This document shows, one piece after another, positions 15,644 to 34,914 of a stretch of DNA of 40,754 nt (the stretch's first letter is position 1; each line of letters begins with the position of its first letter). Location: UHGV virus genome UHGV-1474357. One strand, written 5' to 3'. Below the pieces are notes generated by a model that searched no databases, was not told where the DNA came from, and saw nothing but the letters and a program-made list of their open reading frames with translations. Made by a program: the position numbers and the translations under genes. The stretch is from a virus.

Positions 15644-15720
15644 TGGCGTGGCATGCAGGATTCGAACCTGCGACCAACCGCTTAGAAGGCGGTTGCTCTG
15701 TCCGACTGAGCTAATGCCAC
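15644..15720 (-). tRNA. tRNA-Arg (anticodon UCU), argU-like, CCA encoded
   Basis: Minus-strand sequence GTGGCAT-TA-GCTC-AGTCGGACA-GAGC-A-ACCGC-CTTCTAA-GCGGT-TGGTC-GCAGG-TTCGAAT-CCTGC-ATGCCAC-G-CCA folds as a canonical cloverleaf with all four stems Watson-Crick paired; anticodon loop CU-UCU-AA. Confidence 0.9.
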
Positions 15721-16368: not shown

Positions 16369-18048
16369 ATGGCGGAAACAACTAAAGAGCGATTGAACAA
16401 ACAGTTCGCACAACTTGAAAGCGAGCGTCAGTCGTTCGAGCCGCACTGGCGCGAGTTGAGTGATTACATCAACCCGCGTGGTTCCCGCTTTCTGACTTCT
16501 GAGGTTAACCGTAACGATCGACGCAATACACGCATTATTGATTCGACCGGGACTATGGCGGCGCGCACTCTCGCCAGCGGCATGATGTCAGGCATCACAA
16601 GCCCCGCGCGTCCGTGGTTTCGCCTGGCTACGCCAGATCCTGAAATGATGGATTATGGCCCTGTTAAGTTGTGGCTTGAGGCGGTGCAGAACCGCATGAA
16701 CGATATGTTCAATAAGTCGAATCTCTATCAGTCGCTGCCGCAGTTATACGGAAGCCTCGGCACATACAGCACTGGTGCAATGGCAGTGCTGGAGGATGAC
16801 GAGGACATCATTCGCACAATGCCATTCCCGATAGGCAGTTACTACCTGGCTAACTCACCTCGTGGCAGTGTGGACACCTGTTTTCGCAAGTTCTCTATGA
16901 CTGTTCGTCAGCTTGTTCAGGAGTTCGGGCTAAATAACGTCAGCGAATCCGTAAAAAGCATGTGGGAAAGCGGCACCTACGAGAAGTGGATTGAAGTGAT
17001 GCATTCGGTTTACCCGAACATTGACCGCGATACATCGAAGCTGGATAGCAAGAACAAGCCATTCAAATCGGTTTATTACGAGGTTGGTGGCGATAACGAC
17101 AAGTTGTTGCGTGAGTCCGGATTCGATGAGTTTCCAATTATGGCCCCGCGCTGGGAAGTTAACGGCGAAGATGTTTATGGATCATCATGCCCGGGTATGC
17201 TGGCGCTTGGACCTGTTAAGGCATTGCAGCTTCTCCAGAAGCGCAAGTCGCAGTTGATTGATAAAGCCACCAATCCGCCGATGGTTGCTCCGAATTCCCT
17301 CAAGAATCAGCGTGCCTCCCTTCTTCCTGGCGACATCACGTATATCGATCAGATTACTGGTCAGGATGGTTTCAGGCCTGCTTATCTGGTTAACCCCAGT
17401 ACAGCAGATTTGGTGGCAGACATTCAGGACACTCGTCAAATCATTAACAGCGCCTACTTTGTCGATCTGTTCATGATGTTGCAGAACATCAATACCCGCT
17501 CGATGCCTGTGGAAGCGGTGATCGAAATGAAAGAAGAAAAACTTCTGATGTTGGGGCCGGTTCTGGAGCGCCTGAACGACGAATGTCTTAATCCTCTCAT
17601 TGATCGCTCTTTCTCGATGATGGTGCGTAAAAACATGCTGCCGCCACCGCCTGACGCGATGGAAGGCATGCCCCTGAAGGTCGAATACATTTCCGTCATG
17701 GCTCAGGCGCAGAAGTCTATCGGCCTGTCCAGTCTGGCGTCCACGGTTAACTTCATTGGTCAACTTGCGCAAGCGAAACCAGAAGCTCTCGACAAACTCA
17801 ACGTTGATCAGGCGATCGATGCATTCGCTGATATGTCCGGAGTGTCTCCAACCGTCATTGTTCCGCAGGAACAGGTTGAGCAGGCTCGCCAGCAACGGGC
17901 ACAGCAACAACAGCAGCAACAAATGATGGCGATGGGGATGGCGGCGGCACAGGGTGCCAAGACGCTAAGCGAAGCTAAAACTTCGGATCCGAGTGTTTTG
18001 TCAGCTATGGCGAATGCAGTTAGTGGTCAGGGTGGGCAATCACAATGA
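16369..18048 (+). CDS. Portal protein (T7 gp8-like head-to-tail connector)
   Basis: 559 aa, size and position (before scaffold and capsid) as in T7-like modules; Gln-rich C-terminal tail; sequence recognised as head-tail connector family from memory. Confidence 0.75.
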   Translation: MAETTKERLNKQFAQLESERQSFEPHWRELSDYINPRGSRFLTSEVNRNDRRNTRIIDSTGTMAARTLASGMMSGITSPARPWFRLATPDPEMMDYGPVKLWLEAVQNRMNDMFNKSNLYQSLPQLYGSLGTYSTGAMAVLEDDEDIIRTMPFPIGSYYLANSPRGSVDTCFRKFSMTVRQLVQEFGLNNVSESVKSMWESGTYEKWIEVMHSVYPNIDRDTSKLDSKNKPFKSVYYEVGGDNDKLLRESGFDEFPIMAPRWEVNGEDVYGSSCPGMLALGPVKALQLLQKRKSQLIDKATNPPMVAPNSLKNQRASLLPGDITYIDQITGQDGFRPAYLVNPSTADLVADIQDTRQIINSAYFVDLFMMLQNINTRSMPVEAVIEMKEEKLLMLGPVLERLNDECLNPLIDRSFSMMVRKNMLPPPPDAMEGMPLKVEYISVMAQAQKSIGLSSLASTVNFIGQLAQAKPEALDKLNVDQAIDAFADMSGVSPTVIVPQEQVEQARQQRAQQQQQQQMMAMGMAAAQGAKTLSEAKTSDPSVLSAMANAVSGQGGQSQ

Positions 18049-20931: not shown

Positions 20932-21537
20932 ATGGCCTCTGTAGTAGAGATCTGCAATCGTGCGCTGTCCAATATTGGCAACAGCCGCAGCATTAACAGC
21001 CTGACGGAAGCCAGCAAGGAAGCGGGGGAATGTTCGCTGCACTTTGAGGCCTGCCGTGATGCTGTGCTTTCTGATTTTGACTGGAACTTTGCTACCAAAC
21101 GCGTGGCGCTTGCAGATACGAGCAATCCACCGCCTGACTGGGAATATGCGTACCAGTACCCGTCAGATTGTCTGCGCATTACTGAAATTATGCTTCCTGG
21201 TGTACGCAATCCAACAGCAGCAATGCGCGTTCAGTACGAAGTTGGTGCAGACACCAACGGAACAGGAAAGTTGATCTACACAGACCAGCCGCAGGCATGG
21301 CTCAAGTATGTCTCTCGCGTTTCAGATGTGAACATGTTTGATGCCATTTTTATGGAGGCGTTGGCCTGGCGTCTTGCGGCAGCTATTAACATGGCGCTGA
21401 CTGGGAATGCAGACCTCGGTACGTTTGCCCTCAATATGTACAATCGCGTGATTCTTAGTGCTGGCTCGCATAGCCAGAATGAATCACAGGAACCACAGCC
21501 ACCGGTTGATGAGTTTACCATTGCGAGGTTGTCCTGA
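20932..21537 (+). CDS. Tail tubular protein A-like (T7 gp11-like), putative
   Basis: 201 aa; size and position match T7 gp11 in a gp11-gp12-gp13-gp14-gp15-gp16-gp17 syntenic series. Confidence 0.55.
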   Translation: MASVVEICNRALSNIGNSRSINSLTEASKEAGECSLHFEACRDAVLSDFDWNFATKRVALADTSNPPPDWEYAYQYPSDCLRITEIMLPGVRNPTAAMRVQYEVGADTNGTGKLIYTDQPQAWLKYVSRVSDVNMFDAIFMEALAWRLAAAINMALTGNADLGTFALNMYNRVILSAGSHSQNESQEPQPPVDEFTIARLS

Positions 21538-24008
21538 TGGCTATCAGTTGGATCCAGCCCAGCTTTGCCGGTGGTGAGATTGGACCGTCGTTGTACGGGC
21601 GTATTGACATGGCGAAGTACCAGGTGGCATTGCGCAAGTGCGATAACTTTATCGTGCGGCAGTATGGCGGTGTTGAGAATCGACCTGGTACGCGTTTTGT
21701 CGGTGCCGCCAAATACCCAAATCGGAAATGCCGCCTGATCCCGTTCCAGTTCTCGACTGTTCAGACCTATGCTCTGGAGTTCGGACACCAGTACATGCGC
21801 GTTATCAAAGATGGTGCGTTGGTGCTGAACAGCAGCAATGTTATTTATGAAATTGCCACGCCATATACTGAAGCCGATCTGTTCCGAATTAAATTCACGC
21901 AAAGCGCCGACGTGCTTACGCTGGTTCATCCGGCATACCCGCCGAAAGAGTTGCGTCGCTATGCGCATGACAACTGGCAACTGGTTGATGTGGTAACGAA
22001 GAACGGGCCATTTGAAGATATCAATATTGACGAGTCAGTGACGGTTTATGCCAGCGCCAGCACCGGGACAATTACGTTAACGGCAAGCGCCTCTATTTTT
22101 GGCGCGGAGCAGGTAGGCAAATTGTTCTATCTGGAACAGCCTGCAGTGGATTCTGTGCCAGTATGGGAAACCAGTAAGAGTACGTCAATTGGCGATATTC
22201 GCCGTGCAGACAGTAACTACTATCGCGCCGTTACAGTAGGCAAAACAGGCACTTTGCGCCCTTCGCATACAGAAGGCACATCATGGGATGGCTGGGGCGG
22301 ATCCGGTGATGATGATACCGGCATTGAGTGGGAGTATCTGCACAGTGGTTTTGGCATTGCCCGTATCTCTGCTGCAAATGGAACTACTGCAACTGCCGAG
22401 GTGATTTCCTATATCCCTTCGCAGGTAGTTGGCGAGGATAATGCCAGCTATAAATGGGCTAAATATGCCTGGAACAGTGTTAATGGTTATCCTGGCACTG
22501 TTGTTTATTATCAACAACGTCTTTACTTCGCCGCATCGACTGCGTTTCCTCAGACTATCTGGGCCAGCCGTACCGGGGATTATAAGGATTTTGGCAAAAG
22601 CAATCCTACGCAGGATGACGACAGAATTATCTACACCTATGCCGGGCGTCAGGTTAATGAGATCCGTCACCTGATTGATGTTGGTTCGCTGGTGGCGCTG
22701 ACTTCCGGAGGTGAGTACGTCATCACTGGCGACCAGAACAAAGTGCTTACCCCATCATCATTTGCATTCAGCTCTCAGGGATCAAATGGCTCGAGCAATG
22801 TCCCACCAATTGCCGTGGCGAATATTGCTCTGTTCGTCCAGGAGAAAGGCAGTGTTGTCCGTGATCTGGCCTACTCATTCGATGTTGACGGCTATCAGGG
22901 GAACGACCTTACTATCCTTGCCAATCATCTTTTTCAGAAGCACAGCATTGTTGACTGGTGCTTCTCAATAGTCCCTTACTCCAGCGCCTTCTGCATCCGT
23001 GATGACGGTAAATTACTGGTGATGACCTATTTGCGTGATCAGCAGGTTTTTGCATGGGCACCACAATCCAGTACTGGAAAATATGAAAGCACATGCAGTA
23101 TCAGCGAAGGCAATGAAGATGCGGTGTATTTCGTCGTTAACCGAACCGTTAACGGGCAAACAGTGAGATACATCGAGCGACTGTCCAGCCGTTTATTTAC
23201 CAGCGATGAAGATGCTTTCTTTGTTGATTCTGGCCTTAGCTATGATGGAAGAAATACGTCTGACAGAACGATGATCATCACTGGTGGTTCTGGCGAATGG
23301 GATTACCGCGCGGAATATACAATCAGTGTTTCTGGTGGTGCGTACTTCACCAGTAGTGATGTCGGCGCGCAACTACAGTTCCCTTATACCGGAACTGATC
23401 CTGATACTGGCGATGAGGTGTCAAAAGAATTACGTTGCGACATTATTTCTGTAACCAGCAATACCGCTGTAGTGGTTCGTGCTAACAGGAACGTCCCGCC
23501 ATCCCTCAGGAATGTGGCCACCACGAACTGGCAGATGGCGCGCCGGACATTTGGAGGCCTGTCTCATCTTGAAGGCCAGACCGTAAACATTCTCTCTGAT
23601 GCGAACGTGGAACCACAGAAAGTGGTTTCCGGAGGTGCCGTCACGCTGGAATCACCGGGGGCTGTAGTGCACATCGGCCTGCCAATAACTGCTGAATTCG
23701 AAACACTGGATATCAACATTAACGGACAGGAAACGCTGCTGGACAAAAAACAGGTGATCCCGTCCGTTACTCTGGTTGTGAATGCCAGTCGCGGCATCTG
23801 GGCGACTACGCCCGGCGGTAAATGGTACGAATATCCACAGCGTGAATTCGAGTTCTACGATGATCCTGTTGATGATGCTACCGGAAAAGTAGAAGTGAAA
23901 CTGGACAGTAACTGGGGCAAAAACGGACGTGTAAAAATCCGTCAGCTTGATCCGTTGCCGCTGTCTGTTCTTGCCGTTATTCCTCGCCTTACTGTTGGTG
24001 GGTTCTGA
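21537..24008 (+). CDS. Tail tubular protein B-like (T7 gp12-like), putative
   Basis: 823 aa; size and position match T7 gp12; start overlaps previous stop. Confidence 0.65.
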   Translation: MAISWIQPSFAGGEIGPSLYGRIDMAKYQVALRKCDNFIVRQYGGVENRPGTRFVGAAKYPNRKCRLIPFQFSTVQTYALEFGHQYMRVIKDGALVLNSSNVIYEIATPYTEADLFRIKFTQSADVLTLVHPAYPPKELRRYAHDNWQLVDVVTKNGPFEDINIDESVTVYASASTGTITLTASASIFGAEQVGKLFYLEQPAVDSVPVWETSKSTSIGDIRRADSNYYRAVTVGKTGTLRPSHTEGTSWDGWGGSGDDDTGIEWEYLHSGFGIARISAANGTTATAEVISYIPSQVVGEDNASYKWAKYAWNSVNGYPGTVVYYQQRLYFAASTAFPQTIWASRTGDYKDFGKSNPTQDDDRIIYTYAGRQVNEIRHLIDVGSLVALTSGGEYVITGDQNKVLTPSSFAFSSQGSNGSSNVPPIAVANIALFVQEKGSVVRDLAYSFDVDGYQGNDLTILANHLFQKHSIVDWCFSIVPYSSAFCIRDDGKLLVMTYLRDQQVFAWAPQSSTGKYESTCSISEGNEDAVYFVVNRTVNGQTVRYIERLSSRLFTSDEDAFFVDSGLSYDGRNTSDRTMIITGGSGEWDYRAEYTISVSGGAYFTSSDVGAQLQFPYTGTDPDTGDEVSKELRCDIISVTSNTAVVVRANRNVPPSLRNVATTNWQMARRTFGGLSHLEGQTVNILSDANVEPQKVVSGGAVTLESPGAVVHIGLPITAEFETLDININGQETLLDKKQVIPSVTLVVNASRGIWATTPGGKWYEYPQREFEFYDDPVDDATGKVEVKLDSNWGKNGRVKIRQLDPLPLSVLAVIPRLTVGGF

Positions 24009-24472
24009 TGATCGATGTTCAAATTATTCCCGCAACCGAAGAGCATCTTCAGATGATTTTGCCGGATGTTCGTCAGGCTGATATTGACGAACTGTATGCG
24101 GTATCACTGATGACTACCGAAGATGCGCTGCGTGTTGGTCTGCGTACTTCGACTATGGCCTGGTCAGGATTTGCGAACGGAGAACTGGTAACCATGTTTG
24201 GCGTATCTCCGGCGTCAATGATCGGTGGCAATGGTACGCCCTGGCTGGTAGGAACCAGCCGTATTGAAAAATATCAGAAGACATTTCTTCGCCACTGCCG
24301 CCCTGTATTGCAGCAGATGCTGGCAGTTTATCCGCGCCTGGAAAACTACGTCGACGAGCGAAACCATGTTGCCAAAGCATGGCTGCACTGGCTTGGATTC
24401 AGGCTTGAAGAAGCCGCGCCTTATGGTGCTCTTGGTCTTAATTTCCACAGATTTCACATGGAGAGAAAATAA
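24008..24472 (+). CDS. Internal virion protein A-like (T7 gp13-like), putative
   Basis: 154 aa; synteny only. Confidence 0.5.
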   Translation: MIDVQIIPATEEHLQMILPDVRQADIDELYAVSLMTTEDALRVGLRTSTMAWSGFANGELVTMFGVSPASMIGGNGTPWLVGTSRIEKYQKTFLRHCRPVLQQMLAVYPRLENYVDERNHVAKAWLHWLGFRLEEAAPYGALGLNFHRFHMERK

Positions 24473-25047
24473 TGTGCGATCCGGTTATTGCTGGTGGCGC
24501 AATGCTCGCCATGAGTGGCATTCAGGCATACACCCAGTACCAACAGGGAAAGTATGCCTCGAAGGTTGCAGAAGCGAACGCAGATATAGCCACTGCTCAG
24601 GCAAATGATGCAATAAACAGAGGTAACGCTGAAGCTGAGCAACGGCGCAGAGAGACCCGACAGCGGCTTGGTACACAGGCGGCGACAATGGGGGCGACCG
24701 GCGCCGATTTATCTACAGGTAACGCGCTGGATATATTTGGTGACACTGCTCAGTTCGGCGCTCTTGATTCGCTGACGACGGTGAATAACGCGCAACGCGA
24801 GGCTTACGGTTATCAGGTTCAGGCTGCCAACTATAAAGCAGAAGCCAGTTCAGCCCGTAAACAGGGGAATGTGGGAGCAGCAACAACATTGCTCACTGCG
24901 CCTCTGAAGGCATACGGTGCGTACCAGATGTTTGGTGGGACGTGGAGTCCGTTCTCTAAAGGAAGTACATCTAGTGGTGGGACGCCAATGTTATCTAACT
25001 CAGGTTTTATGAATTCTGACTCCCGATTCAAAATAGGAGGTTACTGA
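24472..25047 (+). CDS. Internal virion protein B-like (T7 gp14-like), putative
   Basis: 191 aa, begins MC..., Ala/Gln-rich; size and order match T7 gp14. Confidence 0.55.
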   Translation: MCDPVIAGGAMLAMSGIQAYTQYQQGKYASKVAEANADIATAQANDAINRGNAEAEQRRRETRQRLGTQAATMGATGADLSTGNALDIFGDTAQFGALDSLTTVNNAQREAYGYQVQAANYKAEASSARKQGNVGAATTLLTAPLKAYGAYQMFGGTWSPFSKGSTSSGGTPMLSNSGFMNSDSRFKIGGY

Positions 25048-27794
25048 TGCCTGTTGTTCCTACTACATCCGGACGCCAGGTGCAAAGTCGTGGTGTGCAA
25101 ACCGGTGGTTTTCAAACCTTCGATGTTCCTCAAGCAGGTCAGGTGCTGGCGAATGTCGCAGATCAGTATGCGGTGGCATATGGTGAAGCCAGGCAGAAAG
25201 CGAATGTTGCTATGGCCCAGGAGGCGTTACTGCAATTTAACCAATTTGCAGATGACCAGATTAACAACCCAGAAAATGGGCTGATTTCTAAACAGGGTAA
25301 AAACGCTCTTGGTCAGAGTGACGCTGTTATGAAAAATATGCAGGAAAGGGCTCAGGCATTATTAGGCTCAATTCCTGAAAGTGAGGAAAGGAATAAATTA
25401 TCCTTTCAACTCCAGCAGTCTATGCAGTCTTATTACAATCAGGCACGTCGATATGAAGTTGGGCAGTTTCAGCAATTCCAAGATCAAACGTATTTGTCAG
25501 GAAATGCATTGGCTGTCACTCAGTCTGCGGGGCTATATAGCGATAACCAAGCATTTGTCGATTTAGCCAAGCAGCGATTTGAATCTATTGATCAATACGC
25601 TGATGCGCATGGGCTTCCTGATGAGTGGCGTGTTCAGCAGAAAACTCAGCTCAAGGAACAAATGGGGCAGCAAGCATGGATAGGAAATATCGCTCAAAAA
25701 TACAACGAGTTTCTTCAGGTTAATGGAGAGCCAGGGGATCTTGACGGTGTGAGCCGTGCAATGTCACATGGTAATTCATTGGATGCTCGTGGTTTACGTA
25801 ATAATAATCCTGGTAATATTGAAGCGAGCAAATCTAACCCGTGGGAAGGTCAGATCGGTAGCGATGGACGTTTTGCAACGTTTGCTACCCCTGAGCATGG
25901 AATCCGCGCGTTGGGTAAAAATATGTTGTCTTACCAGCGTCAAGGCTATGACACCGTTAGCGAGATTGTTAATCGTTATGCTCCGGCTAGTGATGGTAAT
26001 AATACTGATGCTTATATTAGGGCATTGTGTGGTGAGCTTGGTGTTGGGGAGAATGATCAGCTTGATATCTCTAACCCAAAGACACTAGCTGCTTTATGTG
26101 CTGGGATTATTAAACACGAAAATGGCAGTATGCCTTATAGCACCGAACAGCTTGAAACTGGTATCTCGGCAGCCCTTGGTCTAACTAACCTTGATTCACC
26201 TAAGCGTTATACGGGCAATGCGGCATTTGATGCTATGAGCCCTCAAATGCAAATACAGGCATTGAGGCAGGCTAATGAGCTGAGAAATCAGTACCGCCAG
26301 CAGTATGCGGACCAGCTTAGCACCGTAGTTAAAGATGCATATTCAGCCCTTGATGAAGGATTGAAACCTGAGCAGTTACCTTCTGAGGACGATTTTATCC
26401 GGGCCAATGGTCCGCGCATTGGCGCTATGAAGTGGAAGGATATGCAGGCGCAGATACAATATGGAGGTGTCATTGGTGCCGCTAAAGACCTCACTCCAGA
26501 AGGACGACAAGACATTCTTGAACGTTTACGTCCACAGGATCCAAACGCTCCTGGATTTGCAGCTAACCAGCAACGCTGGGAGAAAATGCAGGCCAAATTT
26601 AAAGAGATGGATAGGGAGTGGGAGATTCAGCAGGGAAGAAACAGGTTCGTGTCTTCAATGCAAAATAACTTCCCGCTGGACCCGAACGACAAAAACAATC
26701 AGGCAGCGGTAGACCGTTATTTCGCGCAGGATATCGCGCCTTCGTTTTCCATATCTGATCCGCAGAGCATCAATACACTGGTCACCGTCACAACTAAAAG
26801 CGGCATGATACCAACTCAGGTTAAAACAATGCTTAACAGTGGAGCAACATCAAGAGATCCTGCGCTGGTTGTCCCGATGGCAAAATTCTACGGTCAGTTA
26901 TTCGATAATAATCCGGCGGCAGCGGCAACACTTGATAAAAGTACGATGGCATTTTACGGCAAGGTTTACGATTATTCCCGCGCTGGCGTGCCGGAGGATA
27001 AGGCTGTTGATATGGCTTACAGCCAGGTGTTCCAACAGGATGACCGAATGAAACAGATGCTTTCCACTGCCATGCGAGACAAAAAATATGTCGCGGCGAG
27101 GGCAACTGCTGCACAAAATAACGCCAGCAGTCTGACTTCCTTTGGTTCGTGGTCTCCGGATATTACCGATCCAGGAAAATCAAATGCGGCCTATCAGCGA
27201 GATTACCAGACAATTTACGATGCTAACTTTGTACAGACAGGTGGCGATGCAGAACAGGCTGAGAAAATGACCAATGCCATGATCAGAACCACTTGGGGAG
27301 TTTCTACGGTTAATGGCAAAGCAGAGGTTATGAAGTATGCACCTGAGGCATTGTACGGAGTAAATAATGGTGCTGGTAACTGGATACAGGGGCAGTGGGA
27401 GCAGGAAAAACGCGAGCTTAAATCAAAATCCTTTGGCGGTCCTCGCAGTGATACGGACTTAATACTTGTTTCTGATGGCCTTACGGCAAGGGATAGGAGT
27501 TATGCTGTTATGGTTTTACAGCCTGACGCAAACGGAGCGATAGAACCGAGAAATTATATTGGAGAAAATGGTCTCCCTGTTCGTTTCAAGCCGGATCAGC
27601 TGACATCTCCAATGTACAGGCAAACCATTCAGTTCCAGCAACAGCGTGTTGATGAGGCTAGAGTGCGGAGAGAAGGCAATCCGCTGCCGCAGTTCAGCAA
27701 TAAAGATGGATATACTCCTCCAGATCTGACCAAACCATTCGGTTATGGTTCAGCCAATTACCTTCCGAGCAATATATACGCAGGGGGCAAATAA
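25047..27794 (+). CDS. Internal virion/ejection protein C-like (T7 gp15-like), putative
   Basis: 915 aa; synteny and size; contains NNPGNIE...GSDGRFATFATPEHGIRALGKNMLSY segment reminiscent of virion-associated peptidoglycan hydrolase motifs (unverified). Confidence 0.6.
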   Translation: MPVVPTTSGRQVQSRGVQTGGFQTFDVPQAGQVLANVADQYAVAYGEARQKANVAMAQEALLQFNQFADDQINNPENGLISKQGKNALGQSDAVMKNMQERAQALLGSIPESEERNKLSFQLQQSMQSYYNQARRYEVGQFQQFQDQTYLSGNALAVTQSAGLYSDNQAFVDLAKQRFESIDQYADAHGLPDEWRVQQKTQLKEQMGQQAWIGNIAQKYNEFLQVNGEPGDLDGVSRAMSHGNSLDARGLRNNNPGNIEASKSNPWEGQIGSDGRFATFATPEHGIRALGKNMLSYQRQGYDTVSEIVNRYAPASDGNNTDAYIRALCGELGVGENDQLDISNPKTLAALCAGIIKHENGSMPYSTEQLETGISAALGLTNLDSPKRYTGNAAFDAMSPQMQIQALRQANELRNQYRQQYADQLSTVVKDAYSALDEGLKPEQLPSEDDFIRANGPRIGAMKWKDMQAQIQYGGVIGAAKDLTPEGRQDILERLRPQDPNAPGFAANQQRWEKMQAKFKEMDREWEIQQGRNRFVSSMQNNFPLDPNDKNNQAAVDRYFAQDIAPSFSISDPQSINTLVTVTTKSGMIPTQVKTMLNSGATSRDPALVVPMAKFYGQLFDNNPAAAATLDKSTMAFYGKVYDYSRAGVPEDKAVDMAYSQVFQQDDRMKQMLSTAMRDKKYVAARATAAQNNASSLTSFGSWSPDITDPGKSNAAYQRDYQTIYDANFVQTGGDAEQAEKMTNAMIRTTWGVSTVNGKAEVMKYAPEALYGVNNGAGNWIQGQWEQEKRELKSKSFGGPRSDTDLILVSDGLTARDRSYAVMVLQPDANGAIEPRNYIGENGLPVRFKPDQLTSPMYRQTIQFQQQRVDEARVRREGNPLPQFSNKDGYTPPDLTKPFGYGSANYLPSNIYAGGK

Positions 27795-30700
27795 TGCCGA
27801 TATATGAACAGGATCCTAAAGAGTTGCTTGGCGAGGATATTCAGCAAATAGCAGCACCTGATGACAGTAATTTCTATATGGAAACACCTTCTTTGCTTTC
27901 TGCTGTGAACCCATTTACCAGTGATCAACGCGTTCAAAGGTCTAGACAAGCAGCATTTCGTATAGATAACACGCTGGGTAGCTTTATTGCCAGTGCTCCT
28001 TTCAGTCAGTTTGACAGGGTTGAAGGATATAACCCATTTGATAACGATGCAGCAGATATTAAAGGCTATGAAGATTTTGCAGATTCGTTTATCAACTCCG
28101 GTTCGCATGAAGAAACAATGGCAATTAAACATCGAATCGATAAGCAAAGAACAGATAGAGAATATCTATCTGAAATGGGTGGTGCTGGTACTATTTCAAG
28201 CTTAGCAATGGGAATGATAGACCCGGTTAATGTGGCTGCAATGTTCATCCCTGTAGGGGCGGTAGCGCGTGGAGGAAGTATTGCTGAGACGGCAGGGCGT
28301 TTTGCCCTGGCGAATGCTGCTGGTGGGGGAGTATCAGAAGCCGCATTACAGGCCACTCAGGAAGCTCGCTCACCGATGGAGAGCGTATCGAACGTTGTTG
28401 TTGATGCTCTCGTTGGTGGGATCCTTGGTGCTGGTGCACAGCTACTTGCTGGACCTAGCGCGCGCGAGGCAGTGGTTAACTCAGTAGGTAATCATTTGCG
28501 AGGTATGGATTCTCCTCAAAGCATTGGTGCAGCTCAGGTTTTCAATACCACACTCGATCAGGAACAGCTCGCTGGACTTGGACTTGCTAACAAAACGTTG
28601 AGTGTCACTCCTGCTGGCCGCTTGGCGCAATCACCATCTCTTGTCTCCCGTCAGATTAACCAGCAGCTTGCCGAAAATAACTATTTCTTCGCCAAAAATG
28701 ATGAGGGGTTGGCTACGTTTACGGCAGTCGAGACTAAGATTAAGCAATACGACGCCATGCTTTATAAGCAGATGGAAGCCACTCGTGATGCTTATCAGCA
28801 GTACAGCAAATCTGTTAGCGCCCGCGGCGTGAAGAGGATGAACTTTATTGATTTCAATGAAGCTGTTGGCATGGCCATGCGCCGTGGTGATCAGAGTGAT
28901 ATTCCTGAGGTTTCACAAGCAGCCGCCAGAATCCGCCCCATTTTCGAGATCACAAAAGCCCGTATGCAGGAACTGGGGATCCTTCCTGAGGATATCGATG
29001 TCGTGACGGCGAAAAGTTATCTTCCCCGCATTTATAAGTTCGATAAGATACTTTCCGACCGCACTGAATTCAGAGGGCGAATTGCCAACTGGATACAAGG
29101 GATTAGTGCCAAAGGTGCTGACAAGGCAGGTCAGCGAATTGAAAGGATAAATTCATTGCTAAAAACTGCAGAGGAATCGGCACCGCGCGCTGATGCTCTC
29201 GCTAGTGAAATCGCTGAAGCGGAGAAATGGTCTGGTAAAAAAATTCTACTCATGGAAGAACTGGATAAACGAAATAAGCTTATATCTCAGGAGACTGACA
29301 CACAGGCGCGTCTTACAAGAATAGAAAAAGAGTTGGCCGAGACTTCATCAGAAAAACTTCAGGCAAGAATGATGAAAGAAAGCTCTGACCTTAAAACACG
29401 CCTTGATGATATAGCGCAGGCAAAGAGTGAGCTTCCTGTCTATCAGCGCCATATGGAGTTGCTGGATAATCCACGGAAATATCGTTCTGAGCTTCGCCGA
29501 CTGCAAAAACGGGCAAATTCAACCACAAGGCTGAATGCAAGCCGCGAACGAGCACTGAAGCAGATGGAGCCTCTATCCCGAGAGGAAGCAGAGGACGCTG
29601 CTGACGAGATCGTGAATAAAATAATAGGCGCACCTTCCGGGCTTGTACCAGCCGATATTATCCCAGAGAGACTCGTTGGTCGGGCTGGTTTCACTAAAAG
29701 CAGAACGCTGCTTATTCCTGATGAGCGTATAGAAGATTTTCTTGAATCAGATGTTAACTACATCATGGAAAGTTATCTCCGGCAGGTGGCACCAGAAATT
29801 GAGCTGACTGCGCAGTTTGGCCGTAAAGATATGGGGGAGCAAATCCGTCAGGTTAGTGAGGAATATACCCGGCTAATAAAAGAGGCTAAAACACCTAAAC
29901 GACGTGCAGTTCTTGAGAAGCAACGGGAGGCTGATATTAGGGATATTACGGCTATGCGTGATCGACTGCTTGGTACTTACGGTGCACCTCAAGATCCACG
30001 CAGTTTCTTTGTTCGTGCCGGGCGAGTTGCTAGGAATATTAACTTCCTCCGTTTGCTTGGTGGAATGACTGTCTCCGCTGCAACTGATCTGATGCGACCG
30101 ATGATGCAGCATGGCCTGAGAAAATCTCTCGGACCAATGGTAAGCATGCTTAAAAATATGGACTCAGTGAAAATTGCAACCAGGGATTTGCGAGAAATGG
30201 CCGTTGGGCTTGATTATGTCCTGTCTACGCGTACAAAGGCTATAGCGGATCTTACTGACCCCTATAGCCGGAGAAGCGCCGCTGAGCGAGGTCTGAACTG
30301 GATGACGCAGAAATTCGGTAACTGGACGCTGATGAATCAGTGGAACAGCGCACTTAAATCATGGTCTGGGATGATAGTGCAGTCGAGGATACTTGACGCG
30401 GCTCGCCAAGTTTCTGCTGGTGGCACGCTCTCCAAAAGTGAAATGCGGAAGATGGCACAGGTCGGCATCAATGAAGATGTTCTGCGTCGAATCGGGGAGC
30501 AATTCGGGAAGCACGGAGAGGATATGGACGGGCTGTTAACCGGGCATAGTCATCTGTGGGATGACCGTTTCGCTAGAGAGATTTTCCAGTCTGCAGTGCT
30601 GAAAGATGTAGACTCAGTGATTGTAACGCCTGGCGTAGGTGATACACCGCTGTTTTTTAGTAAAGAAGGCTGGAAGATGATCACGCAGTTCAAAACGTTT

Positions 30701-31183
30701 ATCTTCGCACAGCATAACAGGGTGCTGGTATCTGGTATCCAGCAGGGCGATGCTGCATTCTATCTTGGTGCGCTTGGCACGATTGCGCTTGGCTCAATGG
30801 TCTATATGATGAAACAGAAGTTAAGCGGTCGCGATATTGACTACAGCTGGAATAACCTTGTGAAAGAGGGGATCGACCGGGGCGGAATGCTTGGCTGGCT
30901 CTCTGAGCCGCTGAATACCGTTGAGAACATAAGCGGTGGTAGGTTTGGTCTTGGCGCGATGTTTGGTGCGCCTCCGGTATCAAGGTTTCAGAGTCGTAAT
31001 GCTATTGGTGCTTTACTTGGTCCTACCTTTGATCTTGGCGGTGATGCCGCGACGGTTGCGAATGGTGTACTTAACGGAGAATTTGACAGCCAGCAAACCC
31101 ACGCGGTCCGTAAAATGCTACCTTTTCAGAACCTGTGGGCGATATCACCATTACTAAATAAAGTTGAAGAGCAGATGAAATAG
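27794..31183 (+). CDS. Internal virion/ejection protein D-like (T7 gp16-like), putative
   Basis: 1129 aa; synteny and size; hydrophobic segment near C-terminus (AFYLGALGTIALGSMVYMM). Confidence 0.6.
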   Translation: MPIYEQDPKELLGEDIQQIAAPDDSNFYMETPSLLSAVNPFTSDQRVQRSRQAAFRIDNTLGSFIASAPFSQFDRVEGYNPFDNDAADIKGYEDFADSFINSGSHEETMAIKHRIDKQRTDREYLSEMGGAGTISSLAMGMIDPVNVAAMFIPVGAVARGGSIAETAGRFALANAAGGGVSEAALQATQEARSPMESVSNVVVDALVGGILGAGAQLLAGPSAREAVVNSVGNHLRGMDSPQSIGAAQVFNTTLDQEQLAGLGLANKTLSVTPAGRLAQSPSLVSRQINQQLAENNYFFAKNDEGLATFTAVETKIKQYDAMLYKQMEATRDAYQQYSKSVSARGVKRMNFIDFNEAVGMAMRRGDQSDIPEVSQAAARIRPIFEITKARMQELGILPEDIDVVTAKSYLPRIYKFDKILSDRTEFRGRIANWIQGISAKGADKAGQRIERINSLLKTAEESAPRADALASEIAEAEKWSGKKILLMEELDKRNKLISQETDTQARLTRIEKELAETSSEKLQARMMKESSDLKTRLDDIAQAKSELPVYQRHMELLDNPRKYRSELRRLQKRANSTTRLNASRERALKQMEPLSREEAEDAADEIVNKIIGAPSGLVPADIIPERLVGRAGFTKSRTLLIPDERIEDFLESDVNYIMESYLRQVAPEIELTAQFGRKDMGEQIRQVSEEYTRLIKEAKTPKRRAVLEKQREADIRDITAMRDRLLGTYGAPQDPRSFFVRAGRVARNINFLRLLGGMTVSAATDLMRPMMQHGLRKSLGPMVSMLKNMDSVKIATRDLREMAVGLDYVLSTRTKAIADLTDPYSRRSAAERGLNWMTQKFGNWTLMNQWNSALKSWSGMIVQSRILDAARQVSAGGTLSKSEMRKMAQVGINEDVLRRIGEQFGKHGEDMDGLLTGHSHLWDDRFAREIFQSAVLKDVDSVIVTPGVGDTPLFFSKEGWKMITQFKTFIFAQHNRVLVSGIQQGDAAFYLGALGTIALGSMVYMMKQKLSGRDIDYSWNNLVKEGIDRGGMLGWLSEPLNTVENISGGRFGLGAMFGAPPVSRFQSRNAIGALLGPTFDLGGDAATVANGVLNGEFDSQQTHAVRKMLPFQNLWAISPLLNKVEEQMK

Positions 31184-31184
31184 G

Positions 31185-32036
31185 ATGAAAAAAATAAATT
31201 TGTTTTTTGGCATAGTGCTTTCAATAGTCTCTGTAAATCCTACAGCTGCCAGTTCATTGCAATGCAATAAGGATAACTTTGATGCATGCAAAACGTGTGA
31301 ACAATTATCAAAGGCTATCGACTTAAAAGAACCTAATCGTGGCGATTACTATAGAGGGGCTTTATGGAATGGGCTTTACGCCTCTTATGTAATTAATTGC
31401 CCTGTGGTTGCTGAGAAGTTACTGAGCCATGGTGCTATACCATCATATGGCGGATATATGGGGTCTATGGGGGCGGTTCTGACAGGAAAATGGCCTCATA
31501 ACAATGAATCAATAAATCTTTCATGGGCAGATTTGCTTATAAAACATGGATTTGATGTTAATAGGCATACGGGGAATTATAAATCAGCTACTGAAGTATG
31601 GGCTATAGATAAAAAACAGATTGAATATAAGTCAGTTTTTGACAAGTTAATTCAATCCAGCGAAGTAAAACCACTCGATCCTTCAAGAAATTTAGAATGG
31701 TGTGCGTCTGAAGGGTATCGCTCAGTTGTCGTTTATTCCCTTAACTCATGTATAGAAAATGCTATAAAACGTTTGGATGATGGTGTTTCTTCAGCGTCTG
31801 ATATTTCATCAGCAGCCGTAAATTCCTGTACTAGCGATGTAGAAAATTTCAATAAGCATTTGGCATGCAAAGCAGCTGTTAAAGAAAACTCTGATAAAGA
31901 GAGAAGCGACGTTTACCAGTTATTAACCAGTGATAGTCAAATGAATAAAAATGTTATTGATATGCTGAAGGAAAGAAATATTGAAACGGTTCTTGAATTT
32001 AGAGCTGAAAATCGATCAGCGAAAACTGCACAGTGA
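31185..32036 (+). CDS. Secreted protein with ankyrin-like repeats (AT-rich cargo gene)
   Basis: N-terminal signal peptide (MKKINLFFGIVLSIVSVNPTAAS); repeat-like segments LLSHGAIPS and LLIKHGFDVNRHTGN; clearly lower GC than flanking virion genes; strong terminator follows. Confidence 0.55.
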   Translation: MKKINLFFGIVLSIVSVNPTAASSLQCNKDNFDACKTCEQLSKAIDLKEPNRGDYYRGALWNGLYASYVINCPVVAEKLLSHGAIPSYGGYMGSMGAVLTGKWPHNNESINLSWADLLIKHGFDVNRHTGNYKSATEVWAIDKKQIEYKSVFDKLIQSSEVKPLDPSRNLEWCASEGYRSVVVYSLNSCIENAIKRLDDGVSSASDISSAAVNSCTSDVENFNKHLACKAAVKENSDKERSDVYQLLTSDSQMNKNVIDMLKERNIETVLEFRAENRSAKTAQ

Positions 32037-32057
32037 TCAAACAGGCCGCTTTCGCGG
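32033..32057 (+). terminator. Intrinsic terminator after secreted ankyrin-like gene
   Basis: AGGCCGC-TTTC-GCGGCCT followed by TGTTTTT. Confidence 0.7.
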
Positions 32058-32065
32058 CCTTGTTT

Positions 32066-32227
32066 TTAACGAATGCCACCGCCACCCGGGCGGGAATCCG
32101 CAGAACGCCCACCGCAGCGGGAGCCGTCAGCAGCAGTGTCGCTGTCGTGCTGACAACGACCGGCAAAGGCCTGAGTTGAAGCTACCAGAGACAACAAAAC
32201 GAACAGTGCAGCAAATGCTTTTTTCAT
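32066..32227 (-). CDS. Putative small secreted protein (53 aa)
   Basis: Internal ATG gives MKKAFAALFVLLSLVASTQAFA signal-peptide-like N-terminus; -35/-10-like TTGACG / TATAGA upstream; weak SD, so low confidence. Confidence 0.3.
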   Translation of the reverse strand: MKKAFAALFVLLSLVASTQAFAGRCQHDSDTAADGSRCGGRSADSRPGGGGIR

Positions 32228-34161: not shown

Positions 34162-34890
34162 ATGGAAGTTTTCTGGATAGTTGTTGGTGTGGTTGCGGTG
34201 ATTATTTACGTTATCAACCAGAACAAGACTAAGATCTCTGATCGTACGGTCGTTAATCATAACAAAACGATAAAGACCGAAGATGGGGAGATAACGATTA
34301 ATCGTACACAGGTGATAGAACACACCTCTACTCAGTTTCAAAAAACTGGAGGTAATGCGCCTAATATTTCCGCACCTCCTGCTTATGATAGTGCGGTAAT
34401 CCAGACATATTATAAACAGCAGGAGTTAGCAAAAGAGAGGCAACTGATTCAGCCAAAGCCGTTTACAGCTGAGCTTCCACCTGGAGTGTCAACGCGTCCG
34501 GCATATCATGGAAGATTCCCTGGTGATGACATATCGTCTCAGTCATCTAAAAAAGCACCTCAGGCAGTATCAGAGCCAGCAAGAATACCTTCTGTATCGC
34601 CGCCAAAAGAAGAATCAGCTAACAGAGTTTCAAGTGGTAGCAAGCAGTGCTTGCGATGCAGAATAAACCTACCATATGAAAAATTCAGGAAATCGTCAAA
34701 AAATCCAGATGGATTGACTAAGTGGTGTGCAAGGTGTCTCGATGGCCCAAAGAATACACGCCATATGAAGTGGTGCCCAATTTGTAATGTCCGCAGAAAA
34801 CGAACAAGCTTTTACCCTAATAATCAAAATGCGGATGGCTTAATGGCATGGTGCAAAACGTGCTGGGACGAGCACAAAGCGAAACGATAG
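34162..34890 (+). CDS. Membrane-anchored protein with repeated zinc-ribbon-like motifs
   Basis: N-terminal TM helix (VFWIVVGVVAVIIYVI); C-terminal repeats of C-x2-C...NPDGL..WC..C (CLRCRINLPYEKFRKSSKNPDGLTKWCARC; CPICNVRRKRTSFYPNNQNADGLMAWCKTC); AT-rich; bidirectional terminator follows. Confidence 0.6.
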   Translation: MEVFWIVVGVVAVIIYVINQNKTKISDRTVVNHNKTIKTEDGEITINRTQVIEHTSTQFQKTGGNAPNISAPPAYDSAVIQTYYKQQELAKERQLIQPKPFTAELPPGVSTRPAYHGRFPGDDISSQSSKKAPQAVSEPARIPSVSPPKEESANRVSSGSKQCLRCRINLPYEKFRKSSKNPDGLTKWCARCLDGPKNTRHMKWCPICNVRRKRTSFYPNNQNADGLMAWCKTCWDEHKAKR

Positions 34891-34914
34891 GCCGCTCTTG
34901 CGGCCTTTAAATTT
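34890..34914. terminator. Bidirectional intrinsic terminator between convergent genes
   Basis: GGCCGC-TCTT-GCGGCC flanked by A/T runs; stem nearly identical to the terminator at 32033-32057. Confidence 0.6.

Follow-up and report, generated by a model that had tools for sequence, protein, structure and literature searches.

The passage of DNA from short-tailed phages through the cell wall, and the blocking of that step, are poorly understood. One described precedent for such a block is Spackle of phage T4, a small exported helical protein with a disulfide, which acts in the periplasm and there inhibits the tail lysozyme, gp5, that incoming phages carry (PMC7677548). A comparable working principle, in which a virion-borne wall hydrolase would be blocked in the periplasm, is proposed here for ORF283, a protein of 283 amino acids (aa) encoded in the UHGV virus genome UHGV-1474357 (a stretch of 40,754 nucleotides (nt), called the window below), although the two proteins are unrelated and ORF283 is not a homolog of Spackle. 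In the reading that is tentatively preferred, and whose probability is judged to fall somewhat short of even, ORF283 would be a periplasmic inhibitor of the Enc34-type (PHA02564) muralytic domain carried by the ejectosome of phages of its own group. This proposal is drawn from gene neighbourhoods.

Toxin-immunity systems provide a second point of comparison. In Stenotrophomonas rhizophila, a type VI secretion system (T6SS) effector, Tae5, carries an Enc34-like N-terminal domain and is countered by immunity proteins with signal peptides, one of which, Tai5a, is encoded just upstream of Tae5 (PMC13340143). Tai5a was considered as a member of the same family as the N-terminal module of ORF283 and rejected, as the sequences are unrelated; it therefore serves as a precedent for the logic and not for the family. 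The Enterobacter cloacae immunity protein Tli is built on an ankyrin-repeat scaffold, and its structure (7ubz_A) is among the fold matches obtained here, but it neutralises a lipase, unlike the hydrolase proposed as the target of ORF283. Both Tli and Tai5a are periplasmic immunity proteins with signal peptides encoded beside signal-less toxin genes, an arrangement that recurs among the relatives of ORF283 described below. In contrast to the known systems, however, no T6SS genes flank these pairs, and ORF283 itself is phage cargo with the hydrolase domain placed inside a virion protein.

A third comparison is offered by morons. HK97 gp15 is said to have been described by Cumby and colleagues in 2012 as a moron-encoded superinfection exclusion protein in the late operon. 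ORF283 shares with genes of this type a low guanine-cytosine (GC) insert in or at the end of a structural operon, a terminator, and a patchy presence among relatives. Classic morons carry their own promoter, whereas none is detectable for ORF283, and HK97 gp15 is an inner-membrane protein, whereas ORF283 is a soluble ankyrin protein. Measured against the moron in the Hendrix/Juhala sense, ORF283 shows the foreign composition and the presence or absence among relatives, but lacks the combination of its own promoter and terminator, since the terminator is present and the promoter absent by scoring.

Finally, a phage-encoded ankyrin protein with a signal peptide is known in ANKp, which has been linked to evasion of eukaryotic immune cells (bioRxiv 10.1101/608950). 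The neighbourhoods of ORF283 and its relatives point instead to a bacterial or phage wall hydrolase. A literature search returned no paper mentioning the RefSeq protein WP_000723561, and a poorly constructed search found no inhibitor of PHA02564 enzymes; as far as can be told, the functional link between ORF283 and the hydrolase is new.

Two modules and a predicted leader

That ORF283 is a real gene and not a chance open reading frame (ORF) is shown by an end-to-end match to phrog_6118 (E 1.7e-200), by 22 homologs from Escherichia, Klebsiella, Serratia, Morganella and Providencia, the full-length ones being 39-99% identical, by a dN/dS of 0.18 between two Escherichia coli alleles, and by its occurrence in 106 out of 5426 complete E. 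coli genomes. Of these genomes, 120 have the 3' end of the gp16-like gene that precedes it, and 106 of those 120 carry ORF283.

An exhaustive profile search against 1.8 billion representative proteins divided ORF283 into an N-module and a C-module (Table 1). Residues ~6-155 match many stand-alone proteins of 155-175 aa that have their own leader and the same four cysteines, while residues ~160-275 match a separate set of stand-alone exported proteins of 110-160 aa that share the motif C-x9-(L/I)DDGxS(P/T)ASDIA-x7-C. There is no Pfam family for either of the two stand-alone sets.

The sequence-only reading of this locus had described the protein as ankyrin-like, a description that holds for the N-terminal half and fails for the C-terminal half, which is a different module. 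The N-module profile matches proteins bearing Pfam Ank domains (P0059 at E 9e-10, as well as P0076 and P0057) and, in the PDB, human ankyrin at E 0.004 by way of a repeated 'LL..GA.P' signature. Modelled alone from 16 diverse sequences, the module reached a predicted local distance difference test score (pLDDT) of 91.4 and a predicted template-modelling score (pTM) of 0.82, with a hairpin followed by two helices occurring three times; these are the stacked units of ~33 residues, each a hairpin plus a helix-turn-helix, that define the ankyrin superfamily by structure. The Pfam Ank models themselves gave no match to ORF283 at E values up to 1, short of their gathering score. The N-module is an ankyrin domain by fold, lying below the Pfam sequence threshold. 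Pattern scans with this module used a trimmed alignment, the first alignment having been too diverse.

The C-module is modelled at pLDDT >90 as a helical bundle. Its profile has no Pfam relative and no solved relative in the PDB, and its fold matches are generic helical bundles only. Searches with the whole of ORF283 were equally sparse: Pfam, NCBIfam and PADLOC returned nothing useful, a sequence search of the PDB gave only DARPins at E ~1, and a BFVD fold search gave nothing below E 0.09. Neither the inhibitors Ivy, MliC/PliC, PliG and LprI nor the known defence systems in Pfam, NCBIfam and PADLOC matched it.

The N-module also occurs within bigger proteins, including proteins of 458-479 aa encoded beside an integrase, one of 480 aa with TPR, and one of 764 aa with canonical ankyrin repeats (loci L076, L078, L080 and L081, all marine metagenome contigs; proteins P0054 and P0057). 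It is therefore a mobile building block.

A cleavable signal peptide had been claimed for ORF283, and the leader, judged here by inspection of the sequence, has the expected features: a basic MKK start, a 14-residue hydrophobic core (INLFFGIVLSIVSV), and then NPTAASS, with small residues ahead of the likely cleavage site, which is probably after AAS or ASS. Residues 1-24 are disordered in the structure model (pLDDT <50), and the N-termini of homologs vary in sequence while keeping their hydrophobicity, conservation starting at the first cysteine. Eight cysteines are invariant across the homolog alignment, four in each module (Table 1), and fit disulfide formation in the periplasm. A lipoprotein reading was rejected, as no homolog has a lipobox ahead of the first cysteine. 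These features make the export of ORF283 a strong prediction. A Sec leader delivers its protein to the periplasm, and nothing found here indicates release from the cell.

Gene neighbourhoods and a conserved place in the late operon

The PHA02564 family has been shown to be muralytic, with a catalytic glutamate in its HENG motif, and is judged to be a glycosidase related to GH73 and GH23 (PMC8943055). In the window, such a domain is found in the gp15-like ejection protein of the phage. Residues 247-362 match the catalytic domain of the Hafnia phage Enc34 endolysin, for which a crystal structure exists (7q47; E 3.7e-15), and residues 247-399 match Gp29, a chain of 1295 residues (9vvp; E 5e-35). 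A motif scan placed the signature RGLRNNNPGNIEAS...FATPEHGIRALGKNMLSYQRQGYDTVSEIVNRYAP...HENGS near nt 25797. The same motif recurs in the gp15-like proteins that phages of Morganella, Serratia and Klebsiella, and phiV10, encode, and the PHROG families that contain the domain are labelled endolysin, tail-injection transglycosylase or tape measure protein. ORF283 shares its operon with the hydrolase-coding segment and is situated ~5 kb downstream of it, beyond the gp16-like gene, and in all 30 phage contigs that carry the fused gene with 8 kb of flank the hydrolase domain is encoded in the upstream gp15-like gene.

The genes for some stand-alone relatives of the N-module lie closer to a hydrolase gene. 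The pairing survey covered 35 metagenome loci in addition to those collected earlier; all ORFs were scored with hidden Markov models for three domains, and the N-module proteins were clustered. Non-fused N-modules form 14 independent clusters, and in six of these the gap to a PHA02564-like gene is 0-4 nt, or the two genes overlap. The hydrolase gene is downstream of the N-module at L044/45, L050/51, L053/84 and L077, and upstream at L048/49 and L052, where it is more divergent and fused to DUF3892. At L044/L045 and L050/L051 the second gene overlaps the stop of the first and encodes a leaderless protein of ~180 aa that starts RGIRNNNPGNIR. By a rough estimate, which is not a computed statistic, chance adjacency of so rare a family would be expected far less than once in 14. 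No direct fusion of the N-module to the hydrolase was found among 70 related proteins. An exported binder whose gene adjoins that of a leaderless cell-wall hydrolase matches the layout of toxin-immunity pairs with a periplasmic site of action; the stand-alone N-modules of the six clusters have the adjacency typical of an immunity gene, while ORF283 itself has no adjacent toxin gene. As a separate observation, the leaderless hydrolases at L050 (4263-4802), L053 (4384-5031) and L077 (4329-4961) end in histidine-rich tails, for example DRSHRHHRHRHHH.

The stand-alone C-modules have a different setting. Two of them (L011 and L041) follow a CI-like repressor gene on the same strand at distances of 10 nt and 63 nt; the repressor consists of a helix-turn-helix plus Peptidase_S24, and a Cro-like gene stands opposite. 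Prophages keep genes that are expressed in lysogeny just after the CI repressor. Two more are on islands (L047 from Thauera and L087 from IMG/VR), one with an integrase, an AlpA-like regulator and a primase, the other with a small terminase subunit, and these islands look like phage satellites. A profile scan of contigs for the C-module yielded two loci only. All four informative contexts are phage-tied mobile elements, and they support the proposed inhibitor role more loosely than does the pairing of the N-module.

The place of the fused gene is conserved. In every genome examined for its position (Morganella L002-L004, Serratia L005 and L006, and 30 IMG/VR contigs) it comes directly after the gp16-like gene, and the phage shares this virion module; three distant ones among the IMG/VR contigs retain 25-31% identity in the C-module. 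The divergence of ORF283 tracks that of the neighbouring genes, its identity to the Morganella and Serratia orthologs being 41% and 61%, compared with 44% and 57% for gp15 and 56% and 79% for gp16. The orthologs in Morganella (L002 10001-10813) and Serratia (L005 10001-10822) have 35-40% GC, against 51-54% for gp15 and gp16. Low GC has thus been held through long divergence, without drift toward the flanking composition. In the window, the reduced GC claimed by the sequence-only reading was confirmed by comparison with the flanks: ORF283 has 36.9% GC and 28.2% at third codon positions (GC3), whereas GC is 46.8-48.1% in the two ejection genes before it (gp15-like and gp16-like) and 48.3% over the window as a whole.

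Several phages have the virion genes without ORF283, among them phiV10, the Klebsiella phages ST512-KPC3phi13.3 and Kp4865-1, and some E. coli prophages. In phiV10 the slot holds a 46-aa membrane protein gene followed by the same terminator (L009 9346-9486), and in ST512-KPC3phi13.3 a gene for a 204-aa protein without a leader (L008 6394-7008). In some E. coli prophages whose gp16 is near-identical, the slot is taken by two other genes (L092 1985-2887 from E. coli CS5L, and L093), encoding a 146-aa exported protein on the opposite strand and a 149-aa protein. None of these alternative products (46, 146, 149 and 204 aa) has a Pfam or PADLOC match. The conserved position, the dispensability and the variable slot together make ORF283 accessory cargo that has long been kept by one phage lineage. 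Truncated or split copies, which suggest occasional loss of function, are seen in a metagenome contig (216 aa plus 58 aa; L067 3989-4842) and in E. coli and metagenome records of 162-192 aa (P0012, P0013, P0018).

Expression of ORF283 appears to depend on the genes before it. A single base (G, 31184) separates the TAG of the gp16-like gene (31181-31183) from the ATG at 31185, in keeping with the earlier placement of the gene directly after the gp16-like stop. No well-spaced Shine-Dalgarno sequence precedes ORF283 in the window, which suggests that its translation is coupled to that of gp16; upstream of the Morganella ortholog, GAGG is found together with a 31-nt gap. No dedicated promoter above background was found: over the 600 nt upstream, sigma-70-like sites score 6.8 at best, close to the median of 600-nt late-operon windows, and a separate promoter scan of the upstream region likewise found none. 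Co-transcription with the late genes, as had been supposed, is therefore probable by sequence. The terminator that had been called strong proved so, with a hairpin at 32043-32060 (a 7-bp stem with six G-C pairs and a 4-nt loop) followed by the T-run TGTTTTTAA, a folding energy of -19.2 kcal/mol, and a z of -3.07 against shuffles.

Table 1. Features of ORF283 and of the late operon in the window
Feature	Position	Strand	Remarks
ORF283, 283-aa two-domain protein, predicted to be exported	31185-32036	+	Stop included
Sec-type signal peptide (predicted), aa 1-24 (MKKINLFFGIVLSIVSVNPTAASS)	31185-31256	+	Inspection, pLDDT, homolog N-termini
N-module, aa 25-160	31257-31664	+	Cysteine-bearing cap and about three ankyrin repeats; invariant C27, C35, C38, C72
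C-module, aa 161-283	31665-32033	+	Helical bundle; motif C-x9-LDDGVSSASDISSAAVNSC; invariant C173, C189, C215, C228
Enc34-type (PHA02564) muralytic domain, aa 247-362 of the gp15-like protein	25785-26132	+	RGLRNNNPGNI ... HENGS
gp15-like ejection (internal virion) protein, 915 aa	25047-27794	+	phrog_1044, phrog_992
gp16-like ejection protein, 1129 aa	27794-31183	+	Directly upstream of ORF283
Intrinsic terminator closing the late operon	32043-32070	+	Convergent minus-strand genes end here too
Tail protein	21537-24008		Late operon, left to right
Two small internal virion proteins	24008-25047		One matches the T7 gp14 family

Proposed function and competing explanations

ORF283 closes the ejection-protein operon as an accessory, moron-like gene. 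In the proposed mechanism, its product would be exported by Sec to the periplasm and stabilised there by disulfides. The ankyrin face of the N-module would bind and block Enc34-type (PHA02564) hydrolase domains. The likeliest target would be the muralytic domain of gp15-like ejection proteins as they arrive in the periplasm, a domain that phages of this group would have to use there for the passage of their DNA through the cell wall. A cell making ORF283 would resist DNA entry or wall damage by superinfecting phages of the same group, and the C-module would probably add a second periplasmic activity, either anti-phage or anchoring. If this is true, ORF283 would represent a natural inhibitor for a recently described muralytic class that is used as endolysin, ejection-protein domain and T6SS toxin. 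It would also constitute a second, independent example of the Spackle strategy, and would give a function to two unannotated families of small exported proteins, one of which is encoded beside prophage repressors. A cultured phage with ORF283 exists (EC.W1-9), and relatives without the gene are available.

A more extended form of the proposal is possible though doubtful. In it, ORF283 would be the first member of an unrecognised family of periplasmic ankyrin inhibitors of Enc34-type hydrolases, fused to an exclusion module that is widespread in prophages and satellites. The fused pair would form a two-part 'anti-ejectosome' that excludes phages of its own kind, and the Spackle-like principle would have arisen independently in temperate podoviruses.

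Several points weigh against an inhibitor of the hydrolase. The link between ORF283 and the enzyme is guilt by association, ankyrin repeats bind many kinds of partners, and ORF283 matches no PADLOC model. No hydrolase gene adjoins the N-module in eight of the 14 stand-alone clusters, several of the contigs concerned being short. ORF283 is a late-operon gene without an above-background promoter, in contrast to known exclusion genes, whose expression is early or comes from the prophage; a late product could protect a progeny-filled cell from wall damage by secondary adsorption, which is an argument and not evidence. There is also a conflict with lysis. Relatives of the Morganella/Providencia type that carry ORF283 have, besides the gp15 domain, a 158-aa Enc34-type endolysin encoded after two holins (L002 14247-14723, L095 12211-12687, L096 15142-15618), by which they lyse the cell, and a broad late inhibitor would counter it. 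Specificity for the gp15 domain or low amounts of the inhibitor would therefore be required. The E. coli and Serratia phages have other endolysin types.

The alternative that survives best, though rather unlikely, is a periplasmic or envelope role unrelated to the hydrolase, such as receptor masking, lysis timing, or another form of ejectosome or envelope binding, with the ankyrin domain acting as a generic binder. Such a role would accommodate the eight clusters that have no hydrolase neighbour, as well as the N-modules that are joined to unrelated domains, for example TPR, beta-rich tails or further ankyrins. Expression from the late operon would suit a function in lysis or release, and the C-module context, after CI and on satellites, suggests exclusion but names no target. 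What this explanation leaves out is the adjacency of a rare hydrolase family in six of the 14 clusters, far beyond chance, and the presence of the same domain in the operon of ORF283.

Also unlikely, though closely competing with the main reading, is a role in which the same inhibitory activity is aimed at other bacteria, ORF283 being an orphan immunity protein that protects the lysogen from T6SS-type wall toxins. The stand-alone pairs examined have no T6SS, Rhs, PAAR or VgrG genes beside them, and ORF283 is strictly tied to the ejection operon of one lineage in five genera, with which it co-diverges. Without a promoter of its own, its expression in the lysogen is also doubtful.

The sequence-only reading had leaned towards a host-interaction effector. 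A secreted ankyrin effector that acts on an animal host would have its model in ANKp of the sponge-symbiont 'Ankyphages', which is likewise phage-encoded and combines a signal peptide with ankyrin repeats (bioRxiv 10.1101/608950), and ORF283 does occur in extraintestinal pathogenic strains such as IHE3034 and APEC O18. This explanation is nevertheless improbable. A Sec leader reaches the periplasm only, and neither a signal for a secretion system nor a partner from one is present. Strains with ORF283 were isolated from many host species and from surface water, and the stand-alone homologs come from soil, marine and freshwater metagenomes, where they are paired with a cell-wall hydrolase of bacteria. 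Nothing directed at eukaryotes was found, nothing supports a target in an animal host, and the neighbourhoods of the relatives point to the Enc34-type hydrolase and to the immunity regions of prophages. A part in the virion or its assembly, as a minor ejection protein or a chaperone, which the position right after three ejection-protein genes and the apparent translational coupling to gp16 might favour, is very unlikely, with a probability close to nil, as the earlier reading had also held, because the Sec leader would take ORF283 out of the cytoplasm, where virions assemble, and the disulfide cysteines, the composition foreign to the operon and the close relatives that keep the same virion genes without ORF283 speak against it as well.

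Phage setting and minor observations

The window represents the full genome of a temperate E. coli podovirus similar to epsilon15 and phiV10 (Uetakevirus-like). The closest phage record is Escherichia phage EC.W1-9, with 98.7% identity across the region. ORF283 is followed on its 3' side by a minus-strand block that includes the Ant antirepressor, then by the tailspike gene and the lysis genes.

In the ejection genes themselves, the muralytic domain of this phage is housed in the gp15-like protein and not in the gp16-like protein. The alignment of the latter to PHROG 342 ('internal virion protein with endolysin domain') begins at profile position 192, and the N-terminal portion of PHROG 342 is therefore missing from it. 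Between two E. coli prophages (27794-31183 of the window and L125 3595-6984), the gp16-like proteins are near-identical save for dense substitutions at aa 117-180, which look like a recombination patch.

The late operon opens with a 559-aa ORF (16369-18048), upstream of which a tRNA-Arg with the anticodon TCT lies inside the prophage (15644-15720, minus strand). Between the antirepressor block and the tailspike gene, a plus-strand gene at 34162-34890 encodes a 242-aa protein with an N-terminal membrane helix and repeated cysteine pairs towards the C-terminus; it has a weak Stc1-like match (E 5e-4), and the gene ends at a second strong terminator (34889-34906). Converging on the terminator of ORF283, a minus-strand gene (32066-32227) encodes a small protein of 53 aa with a leader (MKKAFAALFVLLSLVASTQAFA, then GRCQHDSD...GGGIR). 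This protein matches phrog_14503, annotated 'membrane associated protein, moron', and the stretch containing its gene is found in ~500 complete E. coli genomes, far more than carry ORF283.
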